Below, piece after piece: positions 6,740-58,015 of a stretch of 64,000 nucleotides of DNA. Within the stretch, counting starts at the first letter, position 1. Every line of letters starts with the position of its first letter. This stretch comes from Phycisphaerae bacterium (lineage in GTDB: Bacteria; Planctomycetota; Phycisphaerae; UBA1845; Fen-1342): NCBI GenBank assembly GCA_050115495.1, contig JASFQK010000034.1:16083-80082 (forward strand). The letters run 5' to 3'. The position numbers and the translations under genes are program-made. Under the pieces are notes generated by a model, which was not told the origin of the DNA, ran no database searches, and saw only the letters and a program-made list of their open reading frames with translations.

Positions 6740-6791
6740 GCTATCGCCGGATCGAGTGAGGCAGTGCATGTGTGCCGCTCGTCTGCGGTAT

Positions 6792-6865
6792 GCGCCCGTA
6801 GCTCAGTTGGACAGAGCAGCGGCCTTCTAAGCCGCGGGTCGCAGGTTCGACTCCTGCCGGGCGCG
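6792..6865 (+). tRNA. tRNA-Arg(TCT), likely prophage integration site
   Basis: Cloverleaf: GCGCCCG/CGGGCGC acceptor, GCTC D-stem, GCGGC-CTTCTAA-GCCGC anticodon arm, GCAGG-TTCGACT-CCTGC T arm. CCA not encoded. Integrase immediately downstream. Confidence 0.95.
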
Positions 6866-6980
6866 ATGCTGTAAACCACGCCGAAAGCGTAACTTACGCT
6901 TTACCTCTCCCGAGGGAGGGCGCGGCAAACCGGTCCAGTTGCGCGGAGCGCGCTCCGCGCAACTCACGGAGAGCCGCACA

Positions 6981-8168
6981 ATGCCACGCCAATCTGCCCC
7001 GCCCGCATACCGTAAACGCCTTATCCGTGGTCGCGAAGTCGCCTTTGTCACCCTTCGGGACCCCGAAACGGGCCGTCGGCGCGATTACTGGCTCGGCGCC
7101 TACGGCACCCCCGAGAGCCGAGCTGCGTACGCCCGCATCCTCGCCGACTGGGAGTCGCGCGGCCGGCGGCTCCCGGACGCCCGGGGTCCGCTGCGCCCCG
7201 CTGACGGCGTCACAACCACACAGATCGTCGCGGCCTACTGGCAGCACTTGCAGGCGACGAAGCCCGGGAGACAGTCCGCTATGACTCGCACGCGGCTGAA
7301 GTCCTGGCGCGCCCACTACGGCAACATCGCGGCCGGCCAGATCGGCCCGGTCCTGCTGAACGGCTGGCGAAAGGCGGAGTTGGCCCAGCATTCGGTGGAT
7401 TGGGTGGCCCGAGGGACGACGGCTGTGCTTGCGTTGTACCGCTGGGCCGTGGCCAACGAACTGGTCCCGGTCGACACCTACCAGCGGCTGAAAACGGTCG
7501 AGCCATTGCGGCACGTAAAACGTAAGCGCGTACTCCCGGCTCCCGACGCCGCGATCGCGGCCGTGCGGAAGCTCGTGGGCCGCCAGGTCGGGGCGATGAT
7601 CGACCTCCAGCTCGTCACCGGCATGCGCCCCGGCGAGGTTGTCGTCATGCGGCCCTGCGACATCGACATGTCCGAGAAGGTGTGGGTCTACCGGCTCGAC
7701 TCGCACAAGACGGCATACCGGGGACGGGAGCGGGTCGTCTATCTCGGCCCGCAGGCGCAGGAGATCTTGCGGCCGTTCCTGCGGGGGCGGGCCACGACGG
7801 CCCATTGCTTCTCGCCAGTGGAGGCCGAGGCTGAGTGGCGGCTCGAACGGCGCAAGGCGCGCAAGACGCCCCTGTCGTGTGGGAACCGCCCTGGCACCAA
7901 CCGGCAGGCTCGCCCCCAACGAAGGCCGGGTGCCGCGTACACGACGCGCACGTACGGACAGGCCGTCGAGCGGGCCTGCCAACGAGCAGGCGCAGGCCAT
8001 TGGTCTCCGCACCAGCTTCGGCACAACTATGCGACAGAGGTTCGCCGGCGGTATGGGCTCGAGGCCGCCCGGATCCTGCTCGGCCACTGCTCGGCGCTCG
8101 TTACCGAAGCTGTCTACGCCGAGCGCGATCAGGCGGCGGCCATGCGGATCGCGGCCGAGATCGGCTAG
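6981..8168 (+). CDS. int: Tyrosine recombinase/integrase
   Basis: Catalytic residues TGMRPGE (R), HKT (K), HQLRH (HxxR), LLGH, AVY (Y). GGAGAG RBS before ATG 6981. Confidence 0.92.
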   Translation: MPRQSAPPAYRKRLIRGREVAFVTLRDPETGRRRDYWLGAYGTPESRAAYARILADWESRGRRLPDARGPLRPADGVTTTQIVAAYWQHLQATKPGRQSAMTRTRLKSWRAHYGNIAAGQIGPVLLNGWRKAELAQHSVDWVARGTTAVLALYRWAVANELVPVDTYQRLKTVEPLRHVKRKRVLPAPDAAIAAVRKLVGRQVGAMIDLQLVTGMRPGEVVVMRPCDIDMSEKVWVYRLDSHKTAYRGRERVVYLGPQAQEILRPFLRGRATTAHCFSPVEAEAEWRLERRKARKTPLSCGNRPGTNRQARPQRRPGAAYTTRTYGQAVERACQRAGAGHWSPHQLRHNYATEVRRRYGLEAARILLGHCSALVTEAVYAERDQAAAMRIAAEIG

Positions 8169-23398: not shown

Positions 23399-23848
23399 GT
23401 GGCTTGTACAGACGACTCGACAAAGAATGATGACTTGTGGCGATCCATGAGTGCCACGGTACGAGCGGCGGAGCTGGCGTTCTGCGCGGCCGTTGTACTC
23501 GACAAGCTCGACTTGCCAACCGACTACGAGATTGGATCGCTTAGAAACTACGAAATTCTCGAAAGAGCGATGGACTTGGCCCGTAAGGCTGTTGAGACGG
23601 CCATGCACTCAGAGCGCGTTGCGCTGCCCGAGAAGTCGGCGCCGCCGCCCCAGCCGGCCGGTGACCTGGCGAGTGAAGTGGCCAATCTTAGAGCCGAAAA
23701 CGAACGCCTGCGCCGCGGGCTGGAGGTGCACCTGCACACGCAGGAGTGCCTGGAGTACGCAGCCAATACCGCACGCCGGTGCGGGTCTTACTACTGCCTC
23801 GCCAAGTGCGCCGACTCTCGGCGGGCAATCCTCGGGGAGACGTCATGA
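23399..23848 (+). CDS. Hypothetical phage protein
   Basis: AGGAGG RBS, coiled coil and Cys/His-rich end. Confidence 0.5.
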   Translation: MACTDDSTKNDDLWRSMSATVRAAELAFCAAVVLDKLDLPTDYEIGSLRNYEILERAMDLARKAVETAMHSERVALPEKSAPPPQPAGDLASEVANLRAENERLRRGLEVHLHTQECLEYAANTARRCGSYYCLAKCADSRRAILGETS

Positions 23849-24042
23849 GCGACACGATCGCGGTTACGTCAGACATGCGCGGCCTGCTCGACGAGCTGCT
23901 CGACTGCGAAGACGGCCTGAGCGGCTGGGAGATGGACTTCCTGGGCAGCCTGGATGTGCAGTTCGACGCCCACGATCAGGTCTCGCGTAAGCAGCTCGAC
24001 AAGCTGCACGAGATCGCACGCAAGATGGGGCTGATCGACTGA
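23845..24042 (+). CDS. Hypothetical phage protein
   Basis: ATGA coupling. LSGWEMDFL.SL...SRKQLDKL motif. Confidence 0.55.
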   Translation: MSDTIAVTSDMRGLLDELLDCEDGLSGWEMDFLGSLDVQFDAHDQVSRKQLDKLHEIARKMGLID

Positions 24043-24128
24043 TCGGGTCGCATGGGCGAACGTCGAGCAGGCCGAGGACCAGTGTGTTGGAGGCAGCGTT
24101 GCTGGTGTGAGACTGAGACGAGGTGAGC

Positions 24129-24347
24129 ATGGACGGGCTCGAGCTGGTTCCAACGGAAGAGCTGATCGCGGAGATCCTCCGACGTACCGACCAGGGCCTG
24201 GTGATCTGGATAGACCCGCATGATCGCGTGGAAATGCGATTCCATGGTCGCCACGTCTCCGCAATCGGACTGGCCGAATACGCGCGACGGCGGATTTACG
24301 AACAGCTCTTCCTGGCACAACCACCGCCGCCGGAGATCGAAGACTAG
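24129..24347 (+). CDS. Hypothetical phage protein
   Basis: GAGG RBS, in the operon with the methylase. Confidence 0.5.
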   Translation: MDGLELVPTEELIAEILRRTDQGLVIWIDPHDRVEMRFHGRHVSAIGLAEYARRRIYEQLFLAQPPPPEIED

Positions 24348-24357
24348 AAGGTGTGTT

Positions 24358-24942
24358 ATGGATGTTGACGTCGTGCAGATAGCAACCATCAAACCCTACG
24401 AAAGCAACCCGCGGATCAACGATGCGGCGGTGGACGCCGTTGCCGAGTCGATTCGGCGGTTCGGGTTCCGCCAGCCGATCGTCGTCGACGAGGCCGGCGT
24501 GATCGTTTGTGGGCATACACGGTGGAAGGCGGCGCTGAAGCTCGGGCTGACGGCGGTGCCCGTGCACGTCGCCCGCGACCTGACGCCGGAGCAGATCCGG
24601 GCGTACCGGATCGCGGACAACAAAACTGCCGAGCTGGCCACGTGGAACCTCGACCTGCTGCCGATCGAGCTCGCCGAGCTCCAGGGGGCCGGTATCGACT
24701 GGTCGCTGCTGGGGTTCGACGCCGACGAGCTGGCGAAGCTGCTCGGCGGCGACGTGAAGCCGGGCCTGACCGATCCCGACGAGATCCCCGAGCCGCCGGA
24801 CGAACCGGTCACGCGGCCCGGCGACCTGTGGATTCTCGGCGAGCACCGGCTGCTGTGCGGCGACGCCACGCGAGCCGGAGACGTCGCCAGGCTCCTGGAC
24901 GGTGCGTCGCCGCTGTTGATGGTCACCGATCCGCCGTACGGC
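24358..24942 (+). CDS. ParB-N/DNA methyltransferase (N6_N4 type), exon 1
   Basis: PYESNPR, SIRRFGFRQPIVVD, GHTRWKAA, IADNK (ParB). PGDLWILGEHRLLCGD, TDPPYG (motif IV), then the intron. Confidence 0.9.
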
Positions 24943-27390
24943 GTGCGCCTGATGTATCGCGTTGCTGCGTAAGGAATTACGAGCATGCGAGAGACCTTGT
25001 TGGCAATGTTTGGAAGCAAACCGTGGCCGTTTGGCCGGCCATTGTACCTAGGGAGTAAGTTGGCCAGCACGTGTGAGCTGGCTGGCGACATAGCTCTCCC
25101 GACAACGTGGGACCCAGGTGAGGCTTCACAACCGATGCAGTCCTGCCAGGTAGAGCTTCCGCACGACTACGAAAGGAACCGACCAATACCTTCGGGAAAG
25201 TGGGCCCCCATTCCTGCGAATACTGGAGCCGCCCGGGAGTACCCCGCCCGGGCTAGGGAATGGCCCAAGCGGGCAAGCGCTATCGTTGTAGGCGCATGCC
25301 CTGGCGAATCGCTTCGGCGATTCCGAGGTCGGCGGAGTGGTCAACTATCCGCCGGTGCTTGGGGGAGCAGCGGAGAGCTGTTGGGTATCGAAAGGTCGGA
25401 GTCTACCCGGAAGCGTTTGAGTGCCAGCAAGGGAACCAGGGAAGCCCAGCCGAGTATGGCAGTCGCACAGATAGGCCGCCTTCGGGCGGCTGAATCTCTG
25501 CCGATGAGGCGGCTGGGTGGCGGAGCGTCCGTAGTAGTCCGAGGACGGGAAAACCGTCTACATGGCGAAGGGACGCAGGATGTTTCGTTCTGGACGGCCA
25601 AGGCGTTCGTCAATCGCGAGGGCTCGCGATGAACGTGGCGGAAGTCCAGAGAAGGCTGTGGGAGCAATCCGGCTCGCATCGGCAATTGCGTGCATCCGGG
25701 ACACCGCTGTTCCCCACCAACCCGTATGACGGGCGCGTGCGGAACCTGATGGACCTGATGCACCACCCGCACTGGCTGCGGGATGCGGCCGACCGCGTGC
25801 TGAGGCGGTCCCACAACAAAGCGCCGGGCGTAGACGGCGTGACTGCACGCGAGTTCCGCAAGGGGCTCGACGGCAAGCTCGAATGTCTGCGCCTGGAATT
25901 GAAGCGTGGAACGTACCAACCCCAACCCGTGCGGCGGGTGATGATCCCGAAGGCCAACGGCAAACTGCGGCCTCTGGGCATCCCCTGTCTACGGGACAAG
26001 ATCGTCCAGGAAGCCATCCGCATGGCGCTGGAACCGATCTTCGAGGTGGAGTTCCACGATCATTCGTACGGGTTCCGGCCTCACCGAAGCACGCACCATG
26101 CCGTTTTCCGTTGTCAGCACCTGATGAAGCACGGCTTCACCTGGGTGATTGAGGGAGATGTCAAGGCATGCTTCGATGAGATCTCGCACCGGTCCATCCT
26201 GCGGGCCGTGCGGGAGAAGGTCATGGACAACAAGTTCCTCGCGCTGATCCACCGGTTCCTCAAGGCTGGTGTGGAGGTCGAGGGCATTGTCCAGCCGACC
26301 GAGAAAGGCGTACCCCAGGGTGGCGTGATCTCACCGCTGCTGGCCAATGCGGTCCTGAACAAGCTGGACTGGTTCCTGCACAGTAAGGGCACGCACGAGC
26401 AGGCCATGATGCGGGCCGCCCGCAACCGGCGGCCGAATGTTCGGTTCGTGCGGTATGCGGACGACTGGTGCGTCTTCGTCACGCGGGCGTCGCGGCGCTA
26501 TGCCGAAACGCTGCGCGATGACATCCGCGAGTTCCTTCGACGCGAATGCGGCCTGGAACTCTCGGTGGAGAAGACACACGTCACGCACGTCCAGGATGGG
26601 TATGACTTCCTCGGCTTCCGCCTGAGCTATGAAATCGGCCAAGGCGGTAAGCGGGTGCCGAAGATCAAGGTTGGTCTGAAGGCCCTGGCGAACGTGAAAC
26701 AGCGGCTGCATGACGCGCTGCGGAATCGCCCCCACCAGGAATCGGTGGCCCTGCGGTTGCAGCGTGGCTCGGCGGTCGTGCGCGGGTGGTCGGAATACTT
26801 CCGTATCGCCCACAACTTCACGGACCTTGCTGGAACGTTGGATCATCATGCGCTCTGGATCGCCCTAAAGGGTATCTGTCGCAAGTTCGACATCCCTACG
26901 GGCACGGCCATGAAGCGGTACTACCGTCGCGGCGGACTCCAGGTTGACGACCTCTGCCGCTTGGAGACGTTCAGCGGATTTTCGATGAAGCTGGACTATC
27001 GCGGACCAGAACCGTACATGCCCGGCCAGGGCGACTATGAGACTGACGCCGAGATGGAAGCGGCGTTCGCGCAGTTCAATGAACGCCGGCGCCTGGGGAA
27101 CCTGGACGCGAAATACCGCGCCTTACAGCGTGACGGCTATCGCTGTCGCGCTTGTGGGAAACGGGTTACGGACCGGAACTCCCAGGCGGACCACATCGTC
27201 CCCGTACATCGCTTTGCGAGCTTCGCCCTGGCGACCACCGATGAGAACCTCCAGACCTTGTGCCTGGATTGTCACCGGGAGAAGCACAGTGCGTAGCAGA
27301 GCCGAGAATCATCTGGAGAGCCGGATGCACGGAAACGTGCAAGTCCGGTTCGGGGTTGGGGTCGGGATGCAATCTCCCGGCCTACACCAC
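24943..27390 (+). mobile_element. Group II intron (2448 nt)
   Basis: 5' GTGCG. Domain V GAGCCGGATGCACGGAAACGTGCAAGTCCGGTTC (27318-27351, AGC triad, GAAA loop). Domain VI ends ...CTACACCAC. Removal restores the in-frame DPPYG|VRVEPRSNNAIAAG. Confidence 0.93.
25629..27296 (+). CDS. ltrA: Group II intron-encoded reverse transcriptase/maturase with C-terminal HNH endonuclease
   Basis: [79 protein letters not shown]. Confidence 0.95.
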
Positions 27391-28119
27391 GTGCGTGTTG
27401 AGCCGCGCAGCAACAACGCGATCGCGGCGGGGCTGTCGTCGTTCCCGGCGGAGGAAGCGCAGGCCGGACGCCGGAAGCTGCGCCCCAGGGACCGCCCGCT
27501 CGAGAACGACTTCGTGTCGGACGAGGAGTTCGGGCGGCTGCTGCACGCCTGGTTCGGCAACATCGCCCGCGTGCTATTGCCCGGGCGGGCGGCGTACATC
27601 TGGGGTGGCTACGCCAACATCGCCAACTACCCACCGGTGCTGAAGGCCGCCGGGCTGTACTTCTCCCAGACGATCATCTGGGTGAAGGAGCACCCGGTCC
27701 TCACCCGCAAGGACTTCATGGGCAACCACGAGTGGTGCTTCTACACGTGGCGCGAGGGTGCCGCCCACGTCTTCCTCGGGCCGAACAACGCCACCGACGT
27801 CTGGTCGGTCAAGAAGGTCAACCCGCAGAGCATGGTCCACCTGACCGAGAAGCCGGTCGAGCTGGCGGTGCGGGCGATGCAGTACTCGTCACGCCCGGGC
27901 GAGAACGTGCTGGACTTGTTCGGCGGCAGCGGCTCGACGCTGATCGCCGCCGAGCAGACGGGCCGGCGGGCGTTTCTGATGGAGCTCGACCCGCTGTACT
28001 GCGACGTGATCGTGCGGCGGTGGGAGCAGTTCACGGGGCAAAAGGCGGAGCTAGCCTCCGGTCCCGATCCATTTCGCGAGGAGGATGCTGATGACGATGA
28101 GGATAATCCCGACAACTAG
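27391..28119 (+). CDS. DNA methyltransferase, exon 2 (spliced product ~437 aa)
   Basis: IIWVK, HEWCFY, HLTEKPVEL, VLDLFGGSGSTLIA (motif I), MELDPLYCDVIVRRW. Confidence 0.9.
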   Translation: MRVEPRSNNAIAAGLSSFPAEEAQAGRRKLRPRDRPLENDFVSDEEFGRLLHAWFGNIARVLLPGRAAYIWGGYANIANYPPVLKAAGLYFSQTIIWVKEHPVLTRKDFMGNHEWCFYTWREGAAHVFLGPNNATDVWSVKKVNPQSMVHLTEKPVELAVRAMQYSSRPGENVLDLFGGSGSTLIAAEQTGRRAFLMELDPLYCDVIVRRWEQFTGQKAELASGPDPFREEDADDDEDNPDN

Positions 28120-28830: not shown

Positions 28831-29304
28831 TTATCCGCAAAACGCGAACTGCCCGCGGCCGGTCTTCCTGAAGCGAGCCTTGTCGCTCTTGGCGCCGATC
28901 TCCCGCAGGATCGCGGCGTAGAGTGTGGATTCCGGCGTCTTGCCGTTGGGACTCGTCCACAGGCCGCGCTCGGCCATCGCCTCGATCAGCTCCTTGGCCC
29001 GCATGGGCTGGCCGGCGTCGGCCAGGACCTGGGCCGCGGCGTCCAGGGCGCCGACACGCCGAGGCCGCGGCTCGGCGGGCTGCTTCGGGCGGCGTTTCTG
29101 GGCTGGCTGAGTCTCGCCGCCGCCGGCGGTCTCAACCGGGCGCCACAATCGCCGGGCGCTCTTGATGCGGATGCGCTTGCCGGTGGCGGTGTTTGTGGCG
29201 TTCCAGCCGCCGTGGCTGTTGGTCGAGTCGATCCGCACCGTGACGATGCGGTTACTCACCTTGGCCTCGTACGTGTGCCCGATTTTGACCTCGTCCTTCG
29301 TCAT
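28831..29304 (-). CDS. HARE-HTH (winged helix) domain protein
   Basis: AAAGGA RBS. LDAAAQVL...PM.AKELIE.M...GLW..P.GKTPESTLYAAILREI....RF.K..RG.F. Confidence 0.8.
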   Translation of the reverse strand: MTKDEVKIGHTYEAKVSNRIVTVRIDSTNSHGGWNATNTATGKRIRIKSARRLWRPVETAGGGETQPAQKRRPKQPAEPRPRRVGALDAAAQVLADAGQPMRAKELIEAMAERGLWTSPNGKTPESTLYAAILREIGAKSDKARFRKTGRGQFAFCG

Positions 29305-29385
29305 GGCTGGTCCTTTCACGTTGCCTCGTCAGGCCCGGGTCTCACGCGCCCGGGCGATCCCGACCGGGTCGGGATTTCGGCGGCG

Positions 29386-30060: not shown

Positions 30061-30273
30061 ATGGACGGAGCGGAAGCGAGGCTGAACCCCGCGGCTCTGC
30101 CGCTGGCCGACGCCGCCCGGCTGCTGTCGGCGGCCGGCGGTCAGGCGGTCACGGTCGAGATGCTGGAGGCCGACGTGGCCGCCGGGGCCCCGACGAACGC
30201 GGACGGAACGCTGAATCTGATCCGCTACGCCGCGTGGCTGGTGAAGGAGATGGCCGGCGGAGGGCTATCGTGA
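30061..30273 (+). CDS. Small HTH protein upstream of TerL (terminase small subunit-like candidate)
   Basis: GGAGG RBS. Similar to the TerL N-terminus (TIDLLRYAAWL) and to the 8486 ORF. Confidence 0.65.
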   Translation: MDGAEARLNPAALPLADAARLLSAAGGQAVTVEMLEADVAAGAPTNADGTLNLIRYAAWLVKEMAGGGLS

Positions 30274-34982: not shown

Positions 34983-35002
34983 GTGGAACGCCCGGCCGGT
35001 TT

Positions 35003-35073
35003 GGCGGGATGGTGTAACGGCAACATGCCGGCTTCATGCGCCGGAGCCGCGGGTTCGAATCCCGCTCCCGCAA
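35003..35073 (+). tRNA. Phage-borne atypical tRNA with CAT anticodon (Met/Ile2-like or tRNA-like element)
   Basis: GCGGGA/TCCCGC acceptor with G1:A72 mismatch, GTGT/ACAT D-stem, CCGGC-TTCATGC-GCCGG anticodon arm, GCGGG-TTCGAAT-CCCGC T arm. No CCA. Confidence 0.75.
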
Positions 35074-35085
35074 GTGGAGGACGCG

Positions 35086-50509: not shown

Positions 50510-53209
50510 TTAAACCTCGAATACCTTCAACACCTCGTCCCCGTAGTGGTTGATCACCTTAATCGCGATCTTGCCGGTCTCGGGTGCCGGGAACGGGCGG
50601 CTGGTCGTGCTGTACAGGCTGCTCCAGGCGTCCTCGTCGATCTCGGCCCGCAGCGCCCGCTTGAGCTTCTGATACGGCTCCTCCGCGCCGGTGAAGTACG
50701 CGTGCCGGACAAAGAAGCTCTCGCCGTTGTAGTTCGTGTCGATGAACCAGCAGGCGATATCGTCGGTGGACGACGAGCGGATCGCGCCCGTCGTCGGGTC
50801 GTACACGTCCACGCCCTTGATCTCGACCTCCAGCCACTCCGCGTCGCCCTCGGCCGGCGCGGCCACCCGCCGAATCTCGACATCCGGTTCGCCGAAGACC
50901 ATGAACAGGTTCCCCGCCCCGGTCTTCTTCAGCAGCTCGTCGCCCATCGCCAGGTCGGGGTTCATTTTCGTCGGCAGGACCGTCAGCTTGCCGTAGCGCT
51001 TCGCCTCTTCGCTCACGTGCGGATCGAAAGCGAAGCCACAGACGATCAGCACGTCGTAGCCGATGCCCTGCACGGCCTCCTTGGCGGCCTCCTTGACTTG
51101 ATTCGGCCCGACCGTCCCGTGCTCCGGGCCAAGCGAGACGGCCACGCGACGGACCTTGCCCTCGCCGTCGGTGTACTCGCCCGCCGCGTGCAGCCACCGC
51201 CCGGCCAGCGGCTCCAGCGTGTCGAACTTCAGCCGCTCGTTCTTGCGGGTGTTCTGCACGCCGGCCTTGCGCAGGTTTTCCAGGATCATCCGGGCGAAGT
51301 CCTGCTGCTTGCGGGCCTCCTGTTCGCTGACCGTGCCGTCGAAATCGTCATCCGCGGCGGGCAGCACGCGGTGTGGCGACAGGCTCTCCACCGTGAACGG
51401 CCCGCTCACGCGGACGCGCTTGTTGTCCACGTACGGCTGGTCGTACAGCAGCTCCTGTTCGGCGTGGCGGGCGATGGCAGCGTCGATCTGGGCCCGCGTC
51501 ATGCCCCCCTTGATGTCCGGGTTGTTGGCGATGCTCTTGAGCGTGACGTGCGGCACGCGCTTGTAGACGAAGCCCTTGCGGATGTCGCCCTCGGTCGCGT
51601 GCGGCGGCGGCCGTTGGCCGGTGATCTCGGCTTCCTTCTCGATGCCTTCGGGCGAGTCGGCCAGCAGGTAGTACGGGTAACGCGCAGCCATGATGCGTGT
51701 GCGCGCCAGCGCCAGCGCAACGCGCGAGGTGTCGATCGTGATCCACCGTCGGCCCCATTGCTCGGCGACGTAGGCAGTCGTGCCGCTCCCGCAGGTCGGG
51801 TCGAGCACAAGGTCGCCTGGGTCGGTGGTCATCAACAGACAGCGTTCGATGACCTTGGTGGACGTTTCAACGACGTAGCGTTTGTCGGACGCGAACCCAG
51901 CGACAACAGTATCACCCCAGATGTCACCGATCGGGAACGCCGGGAAGTCGTCGATGTAACGAACGTAGTAGAGGCCGGTCGTTGTCGCCGCGAGGCGCCG
52001 CGCGCATTTCAGCGAAGCCATGCCGGCTTCGTTCGTTTTCCATCGGCTCCGCTGGTTGGGACGCCACTCTTTGCCGTCGTGCTCAACAGGGAACCAGCAG
52101 GAGGCGCCCTCTCCCTTTTCGCGCCCAATGCTCTGGCTCTGCAGGTTATCCAAGCGGTAGACACGTGCGCCCGAGGGGATCACCGTTGGATTCGCTTTCT
52201 CGTCCGGGGTCATGCGACGGCGTGTTCCATCGCAAAGCTCAAGGAATGCGTATGGACCACCCGCCTCTGACGCGACGCTCTTCTCGCGGTATGGCTGCCG
52301 GAACTTCGTTGTCACCTTGTTCTTCGCGTAGAGCAACAAGAAATCTGACATGCCCCCGAGGAATTCGCGCGTTGAGCCACTCGTCTTGGCAAACGTTATG
52401 TTGGCGATGAAGTTCTCGACGCCGAACACTTCGTCCATGACAGACCGAACAAGGTGGACGTTTTCATCACCGATCTGCACGAAGATCGCACCTGTCTCGG
52501 TGAGCAGTTCACGGGCGACAACGAACCGGTCGCGCAGGTACGCCAAATAAGAGTGAATGCCGAGCTTCCAGGTGTCGCGAAACGCACGAATCTGTTCCGG
52601 CTCGCGCGTCGCATCCTCGACCTTGCCATCCTTCACGTCGCGTTTGCGCGTGCTGACCTGCCAGTTCGACGCGAACTTGATCCCGTATGGCGGGTCGAGG
52701 TAGATGCACTGGACCTTGCCCTTGAGGCCCTCCTTCTCGGCTAGGCTGGTCATGACCATCAGCGAGTCGCCAAGGATCATGCGGTTCGTCCAGCTCTGCT
52801 CGTGCTGGTAGAACTCGACGCGGTGGTCGAAGGCCTCGATGCCGTTGAAGTCGGCGAACAGATCAAGCTGCTGTGGTTCCGCCGCGGCCTCGTCCGCGCG
52901 TCGGCGGCGGGCTTCAGCGAGCAAATCGTCCACGATCGCCTGGGGGTGAATCTTCTCCTGGATGTAGACCGGTACGACCGGCACCGCCAGGTCGGCAGCG
53001 TCCTGCTGGTCCTTGCCCTTCCAGACAAGCTGCGGGTCGAGCGACGGATCGCGCGGGTAGAGCATCGTCTGTGGCGCCGCCTCGTCCTCAGCCACAAAGT
53101 CGCGCAGCTCCTCGGTCGGGATATTGGCGCGCTTGTCCTTGTGCTTGATCGCCTCGACCGACGCCGCTCGCTGGCCGTTGTTCTTTCGGGTCGTCTTCTT
53201 ACGTGCCAT
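50510..53209 (-). CDS. mod: Type III R-M methyltransferase subunit (Mod)
   Basis: NRMILGDSL, KGKVQCIYLDPPYGI, IFVQIGDEN, VLDPTCGSGTT (beta-class order). Confidence 0.9.
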   Translation of the reverse strand: MARKKTTRKNNGQRAASVEAIKHKDKRANIPTEELRDFVAEDEAAPQTMLYPRDPSLDPQLVWKGKDQQDAADLAVPVVPVYIQEKIHPQAIVDDLLAEARRRRADEAAAEPQQLDLFADFNGIEAFDHRVEFYQHEQSWTNRMILGDSLMVMTSLAEKEGLKGKVQCIYLDPPYGIKFASNWQVSTRKRDVKDGKVEDATREPEQIRAFRDTWKLGIHSYLAYLRDRFVVARELLTETGAIFVQIGDENVHLVRSVMDEVFGVENFIANITFAKTSGSTREFLGGMSDFLLLYAKNKVTTKFRQPYREKSVASEAGGPYAFLELCDGTRRRMTPDEKANPTVIPSGARVYRLDNLQSQSIGREKGEGASCWFPVEHDGKEWRPNQRSRWKTNEAGMASLKCARRLAATTTGLYYVRYIDDFPAFPIGDIWGDTVVAGFASDKRYVVETSTKVIERCLLMTTDPGDLVLDPTCGSGTTAYVAEQWGRRWITIDTSRVALALARTRIMAARYPYYLLADSPEGIEKEAEITGQRPPPHATEGDIRKGFVYKRVPHVTLKSIANNPDIKGGMTRAQIDAAIARHAEQELLYDQPYVDNKRVRVSGPFTVESLSPHRVLPAADDDFDGTVSEQEARKQQDFARMILENLRKAGVQNTRKNERLKFDTLEPLAGRWLHAAGEYTDGEGKVRRVAVSLGPEHGTVGPNQVKEAAKEAVQGIGYDVLIVCGFAFDPHVSEEAKRYGKLTVLPTKMNPDLAMGDELLKKTGAGNLFMVFGEPDVEIRRVAAPAEGDAEWLEVEIKGVDVYDPTTGAIRSSSTDDIACWFIDTNYNGESFFVRHAYFTGAEEPYQKLKRALRAEIDEDAWSSLYSTTSRPFPAPETGKIAIKVINHYGDEVLKVFEV

Positions 53210-53225
53210 CCGCTACCTCACGAGC

Positions 53226-54995
53226 TCATTCATCGAATGCTTCAATGGCGGCTTGCACCCGGGCCATGCACTTCTCGAACGCAGCCTTGCCCCACGTGGT
53301 GGAGTCCCAGAACGTCAGGAACCTGTGGTGGTGCCCGGTCTGCTTGAAGAACACGGAGACATCAACTGCTGACGCGCCTGCCCCGGCGTTGTGCCGGTAG
53401 TACCGCAGCATTACGTCGAATGCCGTGCCGATGGCCTCAGACAGATCACTGACCATCTCACGCTGGCGCTCCCACAATTGTCGAAACGCCCTGGCCTTAC
53501 GGGTAGCCCGCACCATAGGAGCCAGTCTGCTCCAGACGAAATGCAGCGTGTGCCACTGAGCATAGCGCAGTTCTCTGTCGCTGCGGGCACAATAGGCGAC
53601 CTCGCGCCTGAGCGCATAGCGAGCCAGGTAGAAGTTTGGGTCTGTGTTGGGAAACACCTTCGGGTACGAGCTTTCCTCGAACAGCTCTTCCTTTCCCTTG
53701 CGAACGATCGCCGGGTCCATTTCGCAGGCTGCGACGGCTTGCGCAATCTCGTCCTTCTTGATGGGGCGGTAGTGCTTGCCAGGCGCGCTGCGCCGGGCTT
53801 CGCCCTTGCTCTGACGCTTGCGGATGTAGAGGTAGCCGAGCTTGCGGAAGGACCGCTCCAGTTCGATCTGGATGCGGTCGTTCGACATGAGGTCGGACGC
53901 AGTGATTTTGTTCTGCCAGTTCGTGCCAGCGACGATCCGGGACACGAGCGCTTCGAAGCCATTGGAACCGCCATCGGGGCGGCGCGGCACGCGGATCACC
54001 TTGACCAGCACGCTGGCGTTACGCGCGTCGGTCGCGTGGGCGGCCAGCGTGCGGGTGGTCTGCTGACCGTTGATGATCTGTGGATTGCTGACCTGCAGAA
54101 TGTCCTTGCCCTGGCGGCTCTTCTTCTCGGCCTCGTCGCAGATGATCGTAATGCCGTTGTTGTAATAGAAGAACTTCCCGGGCTCGGATTTCAACGTGGC
54201 GACCATGTTGCGGTTCACGTCCGTGCCGGCCCCGAGGTAGCCACGGATGTTGCGGGCGAAGATGCGCGGCCCGGCGAAGTCGAACAGCGTGGCCACGGCA
54301 TCGCCGCACATGGAGAAGACCCAGGATTCAATCTTGTTCAGGTCGTCGTATCGCTGGGATACCCCATTGACGGTGACGTTCGCGCTCTTCTCCATCTCAA
54401 GATCGAGCGTGGGGATCGGGGGAGCCACGCCGTCGAGGTAATCGCGGAATAGCACCATTGCCCGCGCACCGTCGATGAATTCGACACGGGCGTCGCAGCG
54501 CGCCTTGCGGACGATCTGCTCGGCGTCCCTGCGGGTCGACGCGCTGAGTTTGCCAAGCGTCACAAAATACGTCATGACGCGGTAGTTTTGCTGGGTGACC
54601 CGCTTGCGGGCATCTTTGAGCAGGTTCGCGGAATACGGCTCCATGTTGGCAGTGAACTGCTGGAAGACCCGTGCGTCGCCGTTCCAGACCTGCGAGGCTG
54701 TACTGGCAAAGCTGATCACGTCGTCGCGTTTCTCGGTCGTGCTGGCGAGCTTCTTGCGGTACTTGGCCTGAACAAGAAAGACGACGCGCGCAGCATCGTC
54801 GATCAGCAAGCCGTCGATGCCTTTGTCCCTTGAGCCGCCCGCGACAGCCTCTGCTGCTCGTTCCTCGCTTTCGGTCACGTATGCGCGGAAGAACCAGAGA
54901 ACGAAACGGTCATCATCCGACAGGTTGGGGAACCGCGAGCCAATGTCCTCGATGGCCGCGTTGAGGTCCTGAAGCGTCAGCTTCTCGTGGTTCAT
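53226..54995 (-). CDS. AIPR family (abortive infection phage resistance) protein with an N-terminal PD-(D/E)xK-like segment
   Basis: DKGIDG...VQAKY, FARNIRGYLG, FFYYNNGITIIC, PQIINGQQT, TNWQN.I...DL.SND. Confidence 0.85.
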   Translation of the reverse strand: MNHEKLTLQDLNAAIEDIGSRFPNLSDDDRFVLWFFRAYVTESEERAAEAVAGGSRDKGIDGLLIDDAARVVFLVQAKYRKKLASTTEKRDDVISFASTASQVWNGDARVFQQFTANMEPYSANLLKDARKRVTQQNYRVMTYFVTLGKLSASTRRDAEQIVRKARCDARVEFIDGARAMVLFRDYLDGVAPPIPTLDLEMEKSANVTVNGVSQRYDDLNKIESWVFSMCGDAVATLFDFAGPRIFARNIRGYLGAGTDVNRNMVATLKSEPGKFFYYNNGITIICDEAEKKSRQGKDILQVSNPQIINGQQTTRTLAAHATDARNASVLVKVIRVPRRPDGGSNGFEALVSRIVAGTNWQNKITASDLMSNDRIQIELERSFRKLGYLYIRKRQSKGEARRSAPGKHYRPIKKDEIAQAVAACEMDPAIVRKGKEELFEESSYPKVFPNTDPNFYLARYALRREVAYCARSDRELRYAQWHTLHFVWSRLAPMVRATRKARAFRQLWERQREMVSDLSEAIGTAFDVMLRYYRHNAGAGASAVDVSVFFKQTGHHHRFLTFWDSTTWGKAAFEKCMARVQAAIEAFDE

Positions 54996-57900
54996 ATGCT
55001 GGTCCCCATCTCAGCTCCCTGCGGCAGGTGGGCGCGGATGAGGTTGGCCGCATCCCACGGATCTGTCACTTCGAGAAATGTCCAGCGACCGAAGCCGCCG
55101 TGATTGTTGACGGCAGGCACCCAAAGCGTGCGGGCGGTCGAGACCTTGGCAGCCTTGTCCTTCTTCTGCTCCCCGGTGACCTCGATGATCAGGTTCAGCA
55201 GGTCACCAGGGCCCTGTCCATCCTCCACGTGGCACACAAAGTCCGGGACGTAATTCCTCTCCTCGCCGTTGATCGTGTAAGGGATCGTGAAGCCGAGGTT
55301 GTGGTTCTTCACGTAGCGAACGACCTCGGCCATGTCCTCCAGCGCCTGGGCGAGCTTCTGCTCCCACGATTCCGTGTCGGCGACGACGTGTGAGACGTGG
55401 CACTTGTCCGCCCTGGTCGTGTACACCGGGCGCGTCGTGTCGAAGTCGACGTAGCGCGTCGATCCCACCGTGTCGTACGGCCGCAGGATGGGCTTGAGGG
55501 CGGGAGTGCCGGGCTCGGCGCCCACGATCGCCTTGTAGATACGGTCAGCGGCGTCGTGGGCGAACTCGATCAGCAGCAGGAGCTGCGGAAAGGCCCGGTC
55601 CTTACAGGTCAGGCACGTCGCCAGCCACTCGCGCGTGATCTGCAGCAGTTGCGGGAACAGCCATTGCTTGGCGTTACCGTCGTCGTCGCGGAAATACTTC
55701 TCCAGAAGCAGCTTCGCGAGCAAAAAGGCGACCTCCTGGTCGCGGCGGCGCTTCAGATCGTCGAGCGTGTGGATGCTGCTTTCGCCGACGATCGGCGCGT
55801 TCTCGACCCGCGTCGGAATGTCGGCTGTGCTCAGCGCGAGTTTCGAGTCCTGCGTGAACGCGTATTTCAATCGCTCGCTGGTGACCTCGTAGCGGTACCC
55901 GGCCACGCGCGGGAAGGTGATTTCGCAGTCGATGCGCTCCTCGAGCGCCCGCACACGCGTCGGCAACGGACCCGGCGTGGGCTCCTTCGTCGATCCGCTG
56001 CACGGGATGAACGAGAACGGTACGCCGTAAACCTCGGCATACTCGGGTGGGAAGCCGGTGAACTCGGCCGTGTGATGCTGGTAGCTGATACGGATCGTTT
56101 CGGGGGCGTAGCTCATGCGACGCAATCCGCGCCCAACGACCTGTTCGCAAAGCAGTTGCGTTCCGAACGCCCGCACGCCGAGGATGTGCGTGACGGTGTT
56201 GGCGTCCCAGCCTTCCGTGAGCATCGAGACACTGACGACGCACTTGACGTGCTCGCCGAGCTTGCCCGGTTTGCCGACCGTGTTCATGACCTCGCGGAGC
56301 AGGTCCTCGTCGGTCAGATTGTCGGCGTCGCGGCCTGGGAACCGGGTTCGATACTCGTCCTTGAATTCCTCGATCTCGCGGGCGGCGATCTTCTTGAACG
56401 CGTCGCTCATTGCCTCGCCGGACTCGAGCTGCTCGCTGTCGACGAGGATCGTGTTCGGCCGCCGGAGCCAGCCGCCACGATCGTCGTCGTTGCGGAAGAT
56501 CGGCAGCGCGCCGGCCTGAACGACGGTCTGGTCACCGATCTTCTTCTCCCAGCCGGCGACGTAGTCGTACACGAGCTTGGAGACGTTCGTGTTGTTGCAG
56601 ACGACGATGAAGACGGGCGGCGTCAGGCCGCGGGCACGGGCCTCGGTGTTCTGCTCCCAGCGCTGGTAGGCCTTCTCATAGTTGCTGTAGAGGCTATGGA
56701 GCGCGCCCTGGAGCTCGGCCGGCAGCTTCGGTTCGCCGACGACGGCGGAGGTGCCGCGCCCTTTTCGCGGGAGGTCGTCGCGGATGCGGAGCCAAAGGTC
56801 GCGGTAGGTGGGCTGGTCGCCGGTCATCGAATCGTCCGCGACCGGGACGCGCGGGACCTTCACGATGCCGGACTCGATGGCGTCGATCAGCGAGAAGTCC
56901 GAGACGACCCAGGGGAACAACGTGCCCTCCGGGTAACCGGAGCCTCGGAGGAAGAACGGTGTGGCGGACAGGTCGTAGATCGCCTTCACGCCGATCTTGC
57001 GCTTCACCGCTTCGATGCCGTTGATCCAGATGCGAGCGTCTTCGTTACGTTTCTCTGCTTCCCGCCGATCTTCCTGACTGAGCTTCACGTCCTCACCGTC
57101 CGGGCGGCGGCGGTAGCAGTGATGCGCCTCGTCGTTGATAACGAGGATGTTCTTCTTGTTGCCGAGCCCGCGACAGACTCGGCGGACCATCTCGTCGGGC
57201 GTCTCGGTGAATCGAGTACCGTCGCCCTCGGACAGGATCGCCTTGGTGAGCTTGCCGGCGGCGACCTTCTCGCGAGCCTTGAAGGCGTGGTAGTTGGTGA
57301 TGAGGATCTTCGCCTGCGAGAGCTGGCTGAGCAGTTCCGGACTGAGCACGTCACGCTGGCGGTAGTAGTTGTCCGGGTCGCTCGGGAGTAGCACACGCAG
57401 CCGGTCGCGAATCGTGATGCCAGGCGTGACGATCAGGAACGTGTCCGAGAAGCGGGCGTCCTGGGCGTTTGCGAACTTGTTCAGGGCCTGCCACGCCATC
57501 AACATGGCCATTACGACCGTCTTACCCGCGCCCGTAGCGAGCTTCAGCGCCAGCCGCGGCAGGCCGGGGTTGGCCTGGTCGTTGGCGTCGCGCAGGTCGT
57601 TCTCGATCCACGAGTCGCCGTATTTCCGGGCAACCTCGGTGATGTAGATCGCCGTCTCGACGGCCTCGATTTGGCAGAAGAACAGCTTCCGCTCGCGATC
57701 CGGCCGGGTCCAGTGGGCGAGCAGGCGCTTCGTCGTCGAGGTCACGCCGACGTGGCCGCCATCACGCCACAGCCCCACTCGCTGGCGGACTCGGTTGACC
57801 GCTTTGTTCTCCTCGACGCGATCCTGTGTCCACTCGGTGTCAAAGATGAGCTGCTTGCCGCGTTTCCGGGGCTTGGCGATCGGGATGAAGTAGGCACTGC

Positions 57901-58015
57901 TGCGGCGTTCGCCCACGACGACGTTCGTGATTCCTTCGTCGTCGAACCGGAAGTGACGACCAGGTTCCGCGAAGGGCGAGTTCAGAACTGGGTTTTCGAT
58001 TACGACCTGAGCCAT
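54992..58015 (-). CDS. res: Type III restriction endonuclease/helicase subunit (Res)
   Basis: FFCQIEAVET, LATGAGKT, INDEAHH, DLSATP, MLTEGWD, EQVVGRGLRR, C-terminal YVPDF...IIEVTG. Confidence 0.9.
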   Translation of the reverse strand: MAQVVIENPVLNSPFAEPGRHFRFDDEGITNVVVGERRSSAYFIPIAKPRKRGKQLIFDTEWTQDRVEENKAVNRVRQRVGLWRDGGHVGVTSTTKRLLAHWTRPDRERKLFFCQIEAVETAIYITEVARKYGDSWIENDLRDANDQANPGLPRLALKLATGAGKTVVMAMLMAWQALNKFANAQDARFSDTFLIVTPGITIRDRLRVLLPSDPDNYYRQRDVLSPELLSQLSQAKILITNYHAFKAREKVAAGKLTKAILSEGDGTRFTETPDEMVRRVCRGLGNKKNILVINDEAHHCYRRRPDGEDVKLSQEDRREAEKRNEDARIWINGIEAVKRKIGVKAIYDLSATPFFLRGSGYPEGTLFPWVVSDFSLIDAIESGIVKVPRVPVADDSMTGDQPTYRDLWLRIRDDLPRKGRGTSAVVGEPKLPAELQGALHSLYSNYEKAYQRWEQNTEARARGLTPPVFIVVCNNTNVSKLVYDYVAGWEKKIGDQTVVQAGALPIFRNDDDRGGWLRRPNTILVDSEQLESGEAMSDAFKKIAAREIEEFKDEYRTRFPGRDADNLTDEDLLREVMNTVGKPGKLGEHVKCVVSVSMLTEGWDANTVTHILGVRAFGTQLLCEQVVGRGLRRMSYAPETIRISYQHHTAEFTGFPPEYAEVYGVPFSFIPCSGSTKEPTPGPLPTRVRALEERIDCEITFPRVAGYRYEVTSERLKYAFTQDSKLALSTADIPTRVENAPIVGESSIHTLDDLKRRRDQEVAFLLAKLLLEKYFRDDDGNAKQWLFPQLLQITREWLATCLTCKDRAFPQLLLLIEFAHDAADRIYKAIVGAEPGTPALKPILRPYDTVGSTRYVDFDTTRPVYTTRADKCHVSHVVADTESWEQKLAQALEDMAEVVRYVKNHNLGFTIPYTINGEERNYVPDFVCHVEDGQGPGDLLNLIIEVTGEQKKDKAAKVSTARTLWVPAVNNHGGFGRWTFLEVTDPWDAANLIRAHLPQGAEMGTSI

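Follow-up and report, generated by a model that had tools for sequence, protein, structure and literature searches.

A group II intron inserted behind the catalytic motif of a prophage ParB-methyltransferase gene belongs to a lineage that prefers DPPY-coding sites

Results

This work deals with a ParB-methyltransferase gene that is interrupted by a group II intron in a 64,000-nucleotide stretch of DNA from a Phycisphaerae bacterium (GenBank assembly GCA_050115495.1, contig JASFQK010000034.1, positions 16,083 to 80,082 of the forward strand). This whole stretch is called the window, and all coordinates refer to it. The split gene is located in a prophage with its integrase beside a tRNA-Arg gene (6791-8168); the prophage also encodes a helicase, a D12-type methylase, a terminase, and portal, capsid and tail proteins, and carries a cluster of Mod, AIPR and Res genes at its right end. 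According to translation and Pfam, exon 1 (24358-24942, + strand; 585 nt, 195 codons) encodes the ParB N-terminal domain (ParB_N, residues 4-87, E 1.5e-9), a linker and the first methyltransferase strand through motif IV, and it ends with GAT CCG CCG TAC GGC, the DPPYG codons (24928-24942). Exon 2 (27391-28119, + strand; 242 codons and a stop codon) covers the remaining catalytic region, a putative target-recognition region and the S-adenosylmethionine-binding motif I, and matches positions 20-220 of the N6_N4_Mtase model (PF01555). In the amino-methyltransferases of the beta class, motif IV (DPPY) precedes motif I (FxGxG). Exactly this order is found here, with DPPY at 24928-24939 and DLFGGSG at 27913-27933; the nearest solved structures to the methyltransferase are CcrM, MboIIA, RsrI and DpnA.

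Together, the two exons encode an in-frame protein of 437 amino acids with the junction DPPYG/V (here and below, a slash marks the insertion point), whereas the unspliced reading frame ends after 204 amino acids at a stop codon within the intron (24970-24972, + strand; intron codon 10). A re-check of the 585 nt of exon 1 and the 242 codons of exon 2 exactly reproduced the coordinates and the 437-residue product given in a preliminary description of this DNA, and its statement that the unspliced mRNA yields the ParB domain plus a short tail ending at 24972 was confirmed as well. From the intron-bearing allele, the complete enzyme can be obtained solely via splicing, as had been proposed.

The intron (24943-27390, + strand; 2448 nt, phase 0) was delimited by Rfam, boundary comparison, covariation and a consensus fold. 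It starts with GTGCG at 24943 and ends with ...CCTACACCAC (CAC) at 27390, i. e. GUGYG and AY ends enclose a discrete insertion as compared to intronless alleles, and its G+C content is 62% versus 67-69% in the exons. As GTGCG opens both the intron and exon 2, the junction could be shifted by 5 nt if only the single sequence is considered; it is placed at 24942/24943 by the relatives, whose exon 2 starts with GTCAAG or GTGAAG, as well as by the pairing of the guides and by 79 intronless alleles. The idea that the repeated GTGCG reflects a target duplication was rejected, because exon 2 of the relatives begins otherwise. Domains V and VI (27316-27390, + strand) were recognized by Rfam model RF00029 with 58.4 bits (gathering score 40), and the consensus fold contains a bulged branch-point A at 27384, the seventh base from the 3' end. 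The Rfam models for domains I to IV did not match the intron up to an E value of 5; since four of 20 curated phage group II introns likewise match only in domains V and VI (PMC12350094), such a match is not required for membership.

The intron-encoded protein (IEP; 25629-27296, + strand; 555 amino acids), whose reading frame is in domain IV, is a reverse transcriptase (RT) with a YADD motif, a maturase and an HNH endonuclease. It passes TIGR04416 (349.9 bits, cut-off 300) and has Pfam matches to RVT_1 and HNH, and the match to GIIM (22.6 bits) is just under the cut-off of 23. An AGC-containing internal loop in the lambda-epsilon' region is a criterion for subclass IIA (PMC12350094, section 6). 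Conservation and the consensus fold identified this IIA signature, a conserved AGC (25092-25094, + strand) in an internal loop of domain Ic of about 3 + 9 bases. In IIA introns, which comprise the classes ML and A, exon-binding site (EBS) 2 is present and the EBS1 loop pairs with both exons by way of a delta-delta' contact (PMC4424553). The predicted EBS1, delta and EBS2 pattern, the AGC loop and the branch-point A agree in assigning the intron to subclass IIA. Judged from its sequence, the intron is intact and probably still mobile.

The guide elements were located by covariation between exon and intron positions in a set of 58 distinct intron 5' halves that represent 36 target classes. Two antiparallel registers contain 11 of the 12 strongest covariation cells. 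The first connects EBS1 (GUUGUA, 25285-25290, + strand), which forms a hairpin loop in the consensus fold, to intron-binding site (IBS) 1 at exon positions -1 to -6 (24937-24942, + strand), and the second connects EBS2 (GUGGG, 25200-25204, + strand) to IBS2 at positions -9 to -13 in the D-P-P codons (24930-24934, + strand); both binding sites are thus within the DPPYG codons. The weighted share of Watson-Crick pairs in the EBS registers is 0.62-0.92, as compared to an expectation of 0.28-0.40. Delta (C, 25284, + strand), which shares the hairpin loop with EBS1, faces the first base of exon 2; of 49 introns, 42 have a Watson-Crick pair here, and the column that comes second reaches 17. Initial guesses that placed EBS2 at 25330 or 25518 were dropped once covariation indicated 25200-25204.

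Taken together, the guides read the codons D-P-P-Y-N/V, they place a G opposite the pyrimidine wobble positions and they leave the third base of the second proline codon unread. The EBS1 sequence GUUGUA is present in 18 of the 19 DPPY introns (AUUGUA in the remaining one, L169) and is the exact complement of TAC AAC, while TAC GGC of the studied allele pairs with it via two G-U pairs. Thus, the intron is tuned to DPPYN, and the present copy resides in a rarer allele. With G-U pairs included, each of the 128 synonymous codings of DPPYN matches EBS1 at 6/6 and EBS2 at no fewer than 4/5 positions; for DPPYG, full EBS1 pairing is reached by 128 of 256 codings and by 6 of 15 natural alleles. Since all synonymous DPPYN codings pair with the guides, a silent codon change would give the gene no escape.

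Among the viral alleles of exon 2 (best 80 of 598 matches), 79 are intronless, and all of these read DPPYN, so that empty targets should be plentiful. The guides of the studied intron match EBS1 at 6/6 positions and delta in all 79 of them, and EBS2 at 5/5 positions in 70. In the own genome (5.97 Mb), the IEP has no second copy (a single match), so that the intron is single-copy, and no further site conforms to the target pattern with G at position +1. Another match to its 5' end in this genome (L391) was considered as a second copy and is not intron-like. Among 300 further genomes from the class, eight contain the 5' pattern, and none of the matches is intron-like. The end of exon 1 was matched in 107 of these 300 genomes, and of the 19 loci that were read, 18 are intronless and one lacks the motif.

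Viral contigs provided 11 and 16 loci with relatives of the IEP, species genomes provided 76 (among the best 80 of 82 matches), and 24 metagenome loci were found with a 5'-end pattern built from the closest relatives. A loose pattern of 17 bases for the 5' end gave 75 matches in viral contigs, of which only nine are this intron by IEP or exon; the rest were judged to be chance. The named records with related IEPs are mostly from Planctomycetota, and the intron belongs to a radiation mainly of Planctomycetota and their prophages. Trees of the IEPs were built by fast searches, with the Shimodaira-Hasegawa-like approximate likelihood ratio test (SH-aLRT) as the only support measure. A tree of 71 rows, which omits duplicates, L150, L162, L118, and fragments shorter than 280 amino acids or starting past residue 120 (with six fragments restored in spite of this filter), places the studied intron in a clade in which the 5' exon ends with DPPY in 20 of 25 rows (SH-aLRT 90.9). 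In a tree of 68 rows, the matching clade has DPPY in 19 of 23 rows (SH-aLRT 97). Among the metagenome loci, 17 of 24 intron 5' ends follow DPPYN or a DPPYN end cut by the contig border, six are elsewhere, and one looks like a chance match.

The exceptions within the clade are L174 and L185 in an IS integrase gene (rve_3), L187 in an IEP gene, L005 and L188. These retargeted relatives share 77-85% IEP identity with the studied intron, and in all five, EBS1 is altered and forms 4-6 of 6 possible pairs with the new site. The claim of the preliminary description that this lineage homes to DPPY-coding sites is therefore borne out as a preference of the clade, with guides complementary to the DPPY codons. 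Exclusivity did not hold: the description had named close IEP homologs at unrelated sites as the finding that would speak against it, and such homologs were in part found, in the IS integrase gene, the IEP gene and at two unassigned sites. Introns at conserved motifs are a pattern already described for the genes of mobile elements (PMC12479173).

More distant lineages (59-66% IEP identity, or fragments) reside in IS66 and rve transposase genes, in genes for a TSCPD protein and a primase, in a small gene resembling window positions 30061-30273, and at multiple positions in a putative tail gene, a label that is ours in the absence of a Pfam match. Moreover, the ParB-methylase family is hit at three other positions: L119 and L152 inside the ParB domain and L129 later in the methylase. 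The putative tail gene is a short gene of the same prophage family, and its sister introns (L008, L011, L097, L100, L121, L124, L539, L540 and L541) occupy at least four positions (EAD[IV]/TTR, WD/T[ED]D, EPLEE/ and /LDASEAD), with three copies in one genome. Nesting was also observed in the radiation, as L187 follows IEP codons and L140 has two 5' ends upstream of a single IEP. L182 carries the first 26 intron bases twice in tandem at its 5' junction.

The early stop is a common property of these introns. The stop at codon 10 is kept in all 19 DPPY introns, with each of the three stop codons in use (TAA 10, TGA 6, TAG 3), and a stop in the host frame within 12 codons is present in 16 of 27 introns with other targets, for which the phases were assigned by eye. 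Early stops are common anyway, as 17 of the 19 DPPY introns also have one at codon 3 of a second frame. In phage group I introns, early stops exclude ribosomes from the intron. By analogy, the stop at codon 10 most likely shields the ribozyme from translating ribosomes.

As for the sequencing data, four of 24 listed runs were compared, all as assembled contigs. One contig of run X1 spans 24200-27674 with zero differences, and the depth of this run is flat over the exons and the intron; X1 is possibly the source of this DNA, and its contig is therefore no independent support. An empty allele of the studied strain, for which the preliminary description had suggested looking in reads, did not appear: X1 has no joint from 24942 to 27391, and the joints across the intron that were detected in X3, X8 and, in one case, X1 are all from diverged intronless relatives. 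In the RNA run X23, 10 of 30 bins are covered, and a 594-base contig (24931-25524, three differences) extends over the 5' junction; it is either precursor RNA or DNA. A sigma-70-type promoter was not found within 23800-25700.

Discussion

Our work supports the idea that a selfish group II intron retrohomes to a phase-0 site behind motif IV of amino-methyltransferase genes, and that no selected switch is involved; we assign a probability of about 0.85 to this reading. In this scheme, the IEP would assist the folding of the precursor RNA, and splicing via the EBS1/IBS1, EBS2/IBS2 and delta/delta' pairings and the branch-point A at 27384 would give the 437-residue enzyme. The particle of lariat and IEP would then reverse-splice into empty alleles and prime cDNA synthesis at the HNH nick. 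For the host gene, the outcome would be dependence on splicing and probably lower expression as a by-product. The site may pay off for the intron because its codons are fixed by the protein, because a G faces each pyrimidine wobble and the wobble base of the second proline is skipped, and because a common prophage family serves as the carrier. The proposed mechanism is conventional retrohoming, directed at a conserved motif, by a lineage that is well defined and whose targeting code is mapped.

Several points weigh against this reading. Contigs of the compared runs, with X23 as the single sure RNA run, contain no spliced junction of exon 1 and exon 2, although a missing spliced contig counts as no evidence given the contig data at hand. 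The deep forks of the IEP trees are weak, and guides that read DPPY are present in three rows beyond the clade (L139, L128 and L172), so that the DPPY target is either old or was gained repeatedly. The rows used for covariation are related to each other, and weighting was by target class only. It is an assumption that G-U or G-T pairs are sufficient for homing by the DPPY intron. Finally, the assignment of the IEP to the classes ML or A, most likely to ML, is drawn from RNA features and the HNH domain in place of a reference tree, and solved IEPs of several classes score alike against it (LtrA 181.8 bits, not above the IIB and IIC proteins).

The studied intron shares many features with known systems. 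Ll.LtrB, an intron of subclass IIA and class ML in a relaxase gene of Lactococcus lactis, also recognizes its exons by EBS1, EBS2 and delta-delta' (PMC4424553), encodes an RT-maturase-endonuclease protein, and is housed by a mobile-element gene that depends on splicing for its product (PMC4424553, PMC7293003). In contrast to Ll.LtrB, the present intron has another host gene in another phylum, its IEP is only distantly related to LtrA, and its IBS2 is at positions -13 to -9, with two unpaired bases ahead of IBS1. In the integrative and conjugative elements (ICEs) of Streptococcus suis, each intron family targets the codons of one conserved motif (in VirB4, a helicase or a coupling protein), and here, too, the full protein needs splicing (PMC12479173). 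The targets in our study are different: prophage and IS genes of Planctomycetota, with the catalytic motif of a methyltransferase, and the pairs of guide and target were mapped by covariation. The phage introns described by Merk, Jones and Eddy in 2025 are likewise found in phage coding regions, and 14 of 20 have an intronless homolog (PMC12350094, section 6). Table S2 of that study lists the hits in domains V and VI of L002, a viral contig identical to the studied locus, and of L003 and L004; its rows are given without host gene, boundaries or target, the string 'methyl' occurs zero times in the main text and Table S2, and the host genes of the 20 curated introns, which may include a methylase, are named in Table S1 and Figure 2 (PMC12350094). 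The ShiLan insertion in methylase genes of actinobacteriophages is also a homing element with HNH inside a phage methylase gene; however, it is not a group II intron, does not start with GTGCG and has no RT (PMC11855218). Our searches of the open-licence literature did not turn up any lineage of group II introns with motif IV of methylases as its target, nor did we find mention, in PMC11376236 or PMC9203015, of a group II intron in a methylase gene of the Wolbachia WO prophage.

The lineage adds the catalytic motif of a methyltransferase to the targets known for motif-homing group II introns, and it accounts for split, seemingly broken methylase genes in prophages of Planctomycetota. In addition, the radiation offers about 36 natural classes of guide and target on a single IIA scaffold, with which retargeting and the tolerance of G-U pairs can be tested.

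A further idea is an addition to retrohoming rather than an alternative to it. Intron copies at one catalytic position might form a hub for exon shuffling, at which recombination or trans-splicing swaps recognition regions between methylases; we consider this rather unlikely. In L093 (identical in sequence to L012), exon 1 is of a ParB-methylase, but exon 2 (529 amino acids) is of the Mod type and is followed by a ResIII gene; the genome of L093 has a single intron 5' end and no orphan exon among its six PF01555 matches. L176 has the same kind of mismatch, L188 has the reverse one, and in L144, the sister row of the clade, exon 2 is of a third methylase type. A Mod-Res pair is also present at the right end of the window's own prophage, and there is precedent in the chimeric relaxases generated by an intron, with a junction exactly at the intron site as L093 and L176 suggest; the relaxases were shown experimentally (PMC7947834), whereas L093 and L176 are known from assemblies alone. 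All three mismatched loci are from short-read assemblies, in which a repeat of 2.4 kb is prone to wrong joins, and the delta C is unpaired with the A that opens the Mod-type exons. L093 could have arisen when the DNA between two intron copies of a single prophage was deleted, and the prophage of the window has the Mod-Res pair required for this; a misassembly over the repeat would have the same result. If the loci with mismatched flanks are true, the intron would act as a hinge at which recognition regions are swapped, and this would bear on the origin of new phage and restriction specificities.

The window provides a possible trace of such an exchange in front of the intron. The first 165 residues of exon 1 fit the VEPRS family (best 87% versus 55%), whereas a stretch of 21 codons (24865-24927, + strand; codons -26 to -6) resembles by protein match another ParB-methyltransferase subfamily of the type LMVTDPPYG-VEYDP, with at best 16 of 21 identical residues as compared to 12 of 21 in the VEPRS family. 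The contigs of the relatives cease to align at 24864. The LMVT stretch is absent from all 15 intronless DPPYG/V-x-V-E-P-R alleles, and none of 80 LMVTDPPYG loci continues into VEPR. A swapped tract is possible, and the pattern is a weak hint. The existence of these 15 intronless alleles also shows that our earlier assumption, according to which DPPYG with this exon 2 can only be an intron-made chimera, was wrong. Against shuffling, the mosaic signal is just 16 versus 12 of 21 residues. A retroelement with guides that are blind to synonymous codons could enter several methylase families at one homologous point, between motif IV and the recognition region, and recombination or trans-splicing of its copies could build chimeric methylases with new specificities, such as a prophage ParB-methylase exon 1 joined to a type III Mod exon 2; we regard this proposal, too, as doubtful.

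The intron may also be in a dead end, i. e. in a dispensable prophage gene that is a young pseudogene, where splicing does not occur in vivo or is irrelevant. The lack of spliced RNA among the contigs would fit, as would the two G-U pairs by which alone EBS1 suits the studied allele, the decayed fragments of related methylase genes in the own genome (L014-L016), and the broken exon 2 in two of 19 intron-bearing alleles. Yet, of the other 17 alleles, seven have a full-length exon 2 with its stop, and in ten it stays open as far as the available sequence reaches. Both exons and the IEP of the studied locus are open, and exon 2 deviates from its family at four of 125 conserved columns (two of them alignment gaps), within the range of the intronless alleles (median one, maximum six), which were chosen for closeness to exon 2. 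Moreover, other runs contain nearly the same intron, in contigs that show 14 differences over 1283 bases and 29 over 1510. A dead end is therefore highly improbable, and retrohoming is the better explanation.

The preliminary description had suggested that the intron acts as a switch between a ParB-only product and the full methylase. The unspliced product of 204 amino acids does retain the whole ParB domain, the stop at codon 10 recurs in every one of the 19 DPPY introns, be it TAA, TGA or TAG, and splicing can in principle modulate a host gene, as Ll.LtrB is known for cold-sensitive splicing and a reduced host-gene mRNA (PMC7293003, PMC6003770); by analogy, lower or condition-dependent expression is plausible as a by-product of the intron. 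A domesticated switch that the prophage retains for conditional splicing is nevertheless highly improbable: a regulatory intron would be fixed in its lineage and would have lost mobility or splice conditionally, whereas 79 of the best 80 viral alleles are empty and the IEP retains its RT and HNH domains, sister introns cut the ParB domain (L119, L152) or the later methylase (L129) and occupy tail and transposase genes where such a switch is senseless, early stops are common in other frames and at other targets, and no spliced or differentially spliced RNA was found among the contigs of the compared runs.

Further observations on the prophage and the genome

The Mod gene (PF01555, DPPYG/I), the AIPR gene and the ResIII gene at the right prophage end are encoded at 50510-58015 on the - strand; the Mod site fits EBS2, but neither the -1 base nor delta. 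The fragments L014, L015 and L016 (contigs C4, C65 and C54 of the own genome) are 88-92% identical to parts of exon 2 and are remnants of related prophages; L014 adjoins a piece that resembles the start of the prophage integrase gene. A tRNA-Met gene (CAT; 35002-35074, + strand) lies in the prophage between the terminase and portal genes. Downstream of the methylase gene, a type II hammerhead ribozyme (RF02276, 40.6 bits) is predicted at 29315-29382 on the - strand, directly before a HARE-HTH gene (28831-29319, - strand). Of 20 related loci scanned, eight have such a ribozyme behind the methylase gene and in the same orientation, and one has two; the predicted ribozyme is thus conserved in the prophage family.

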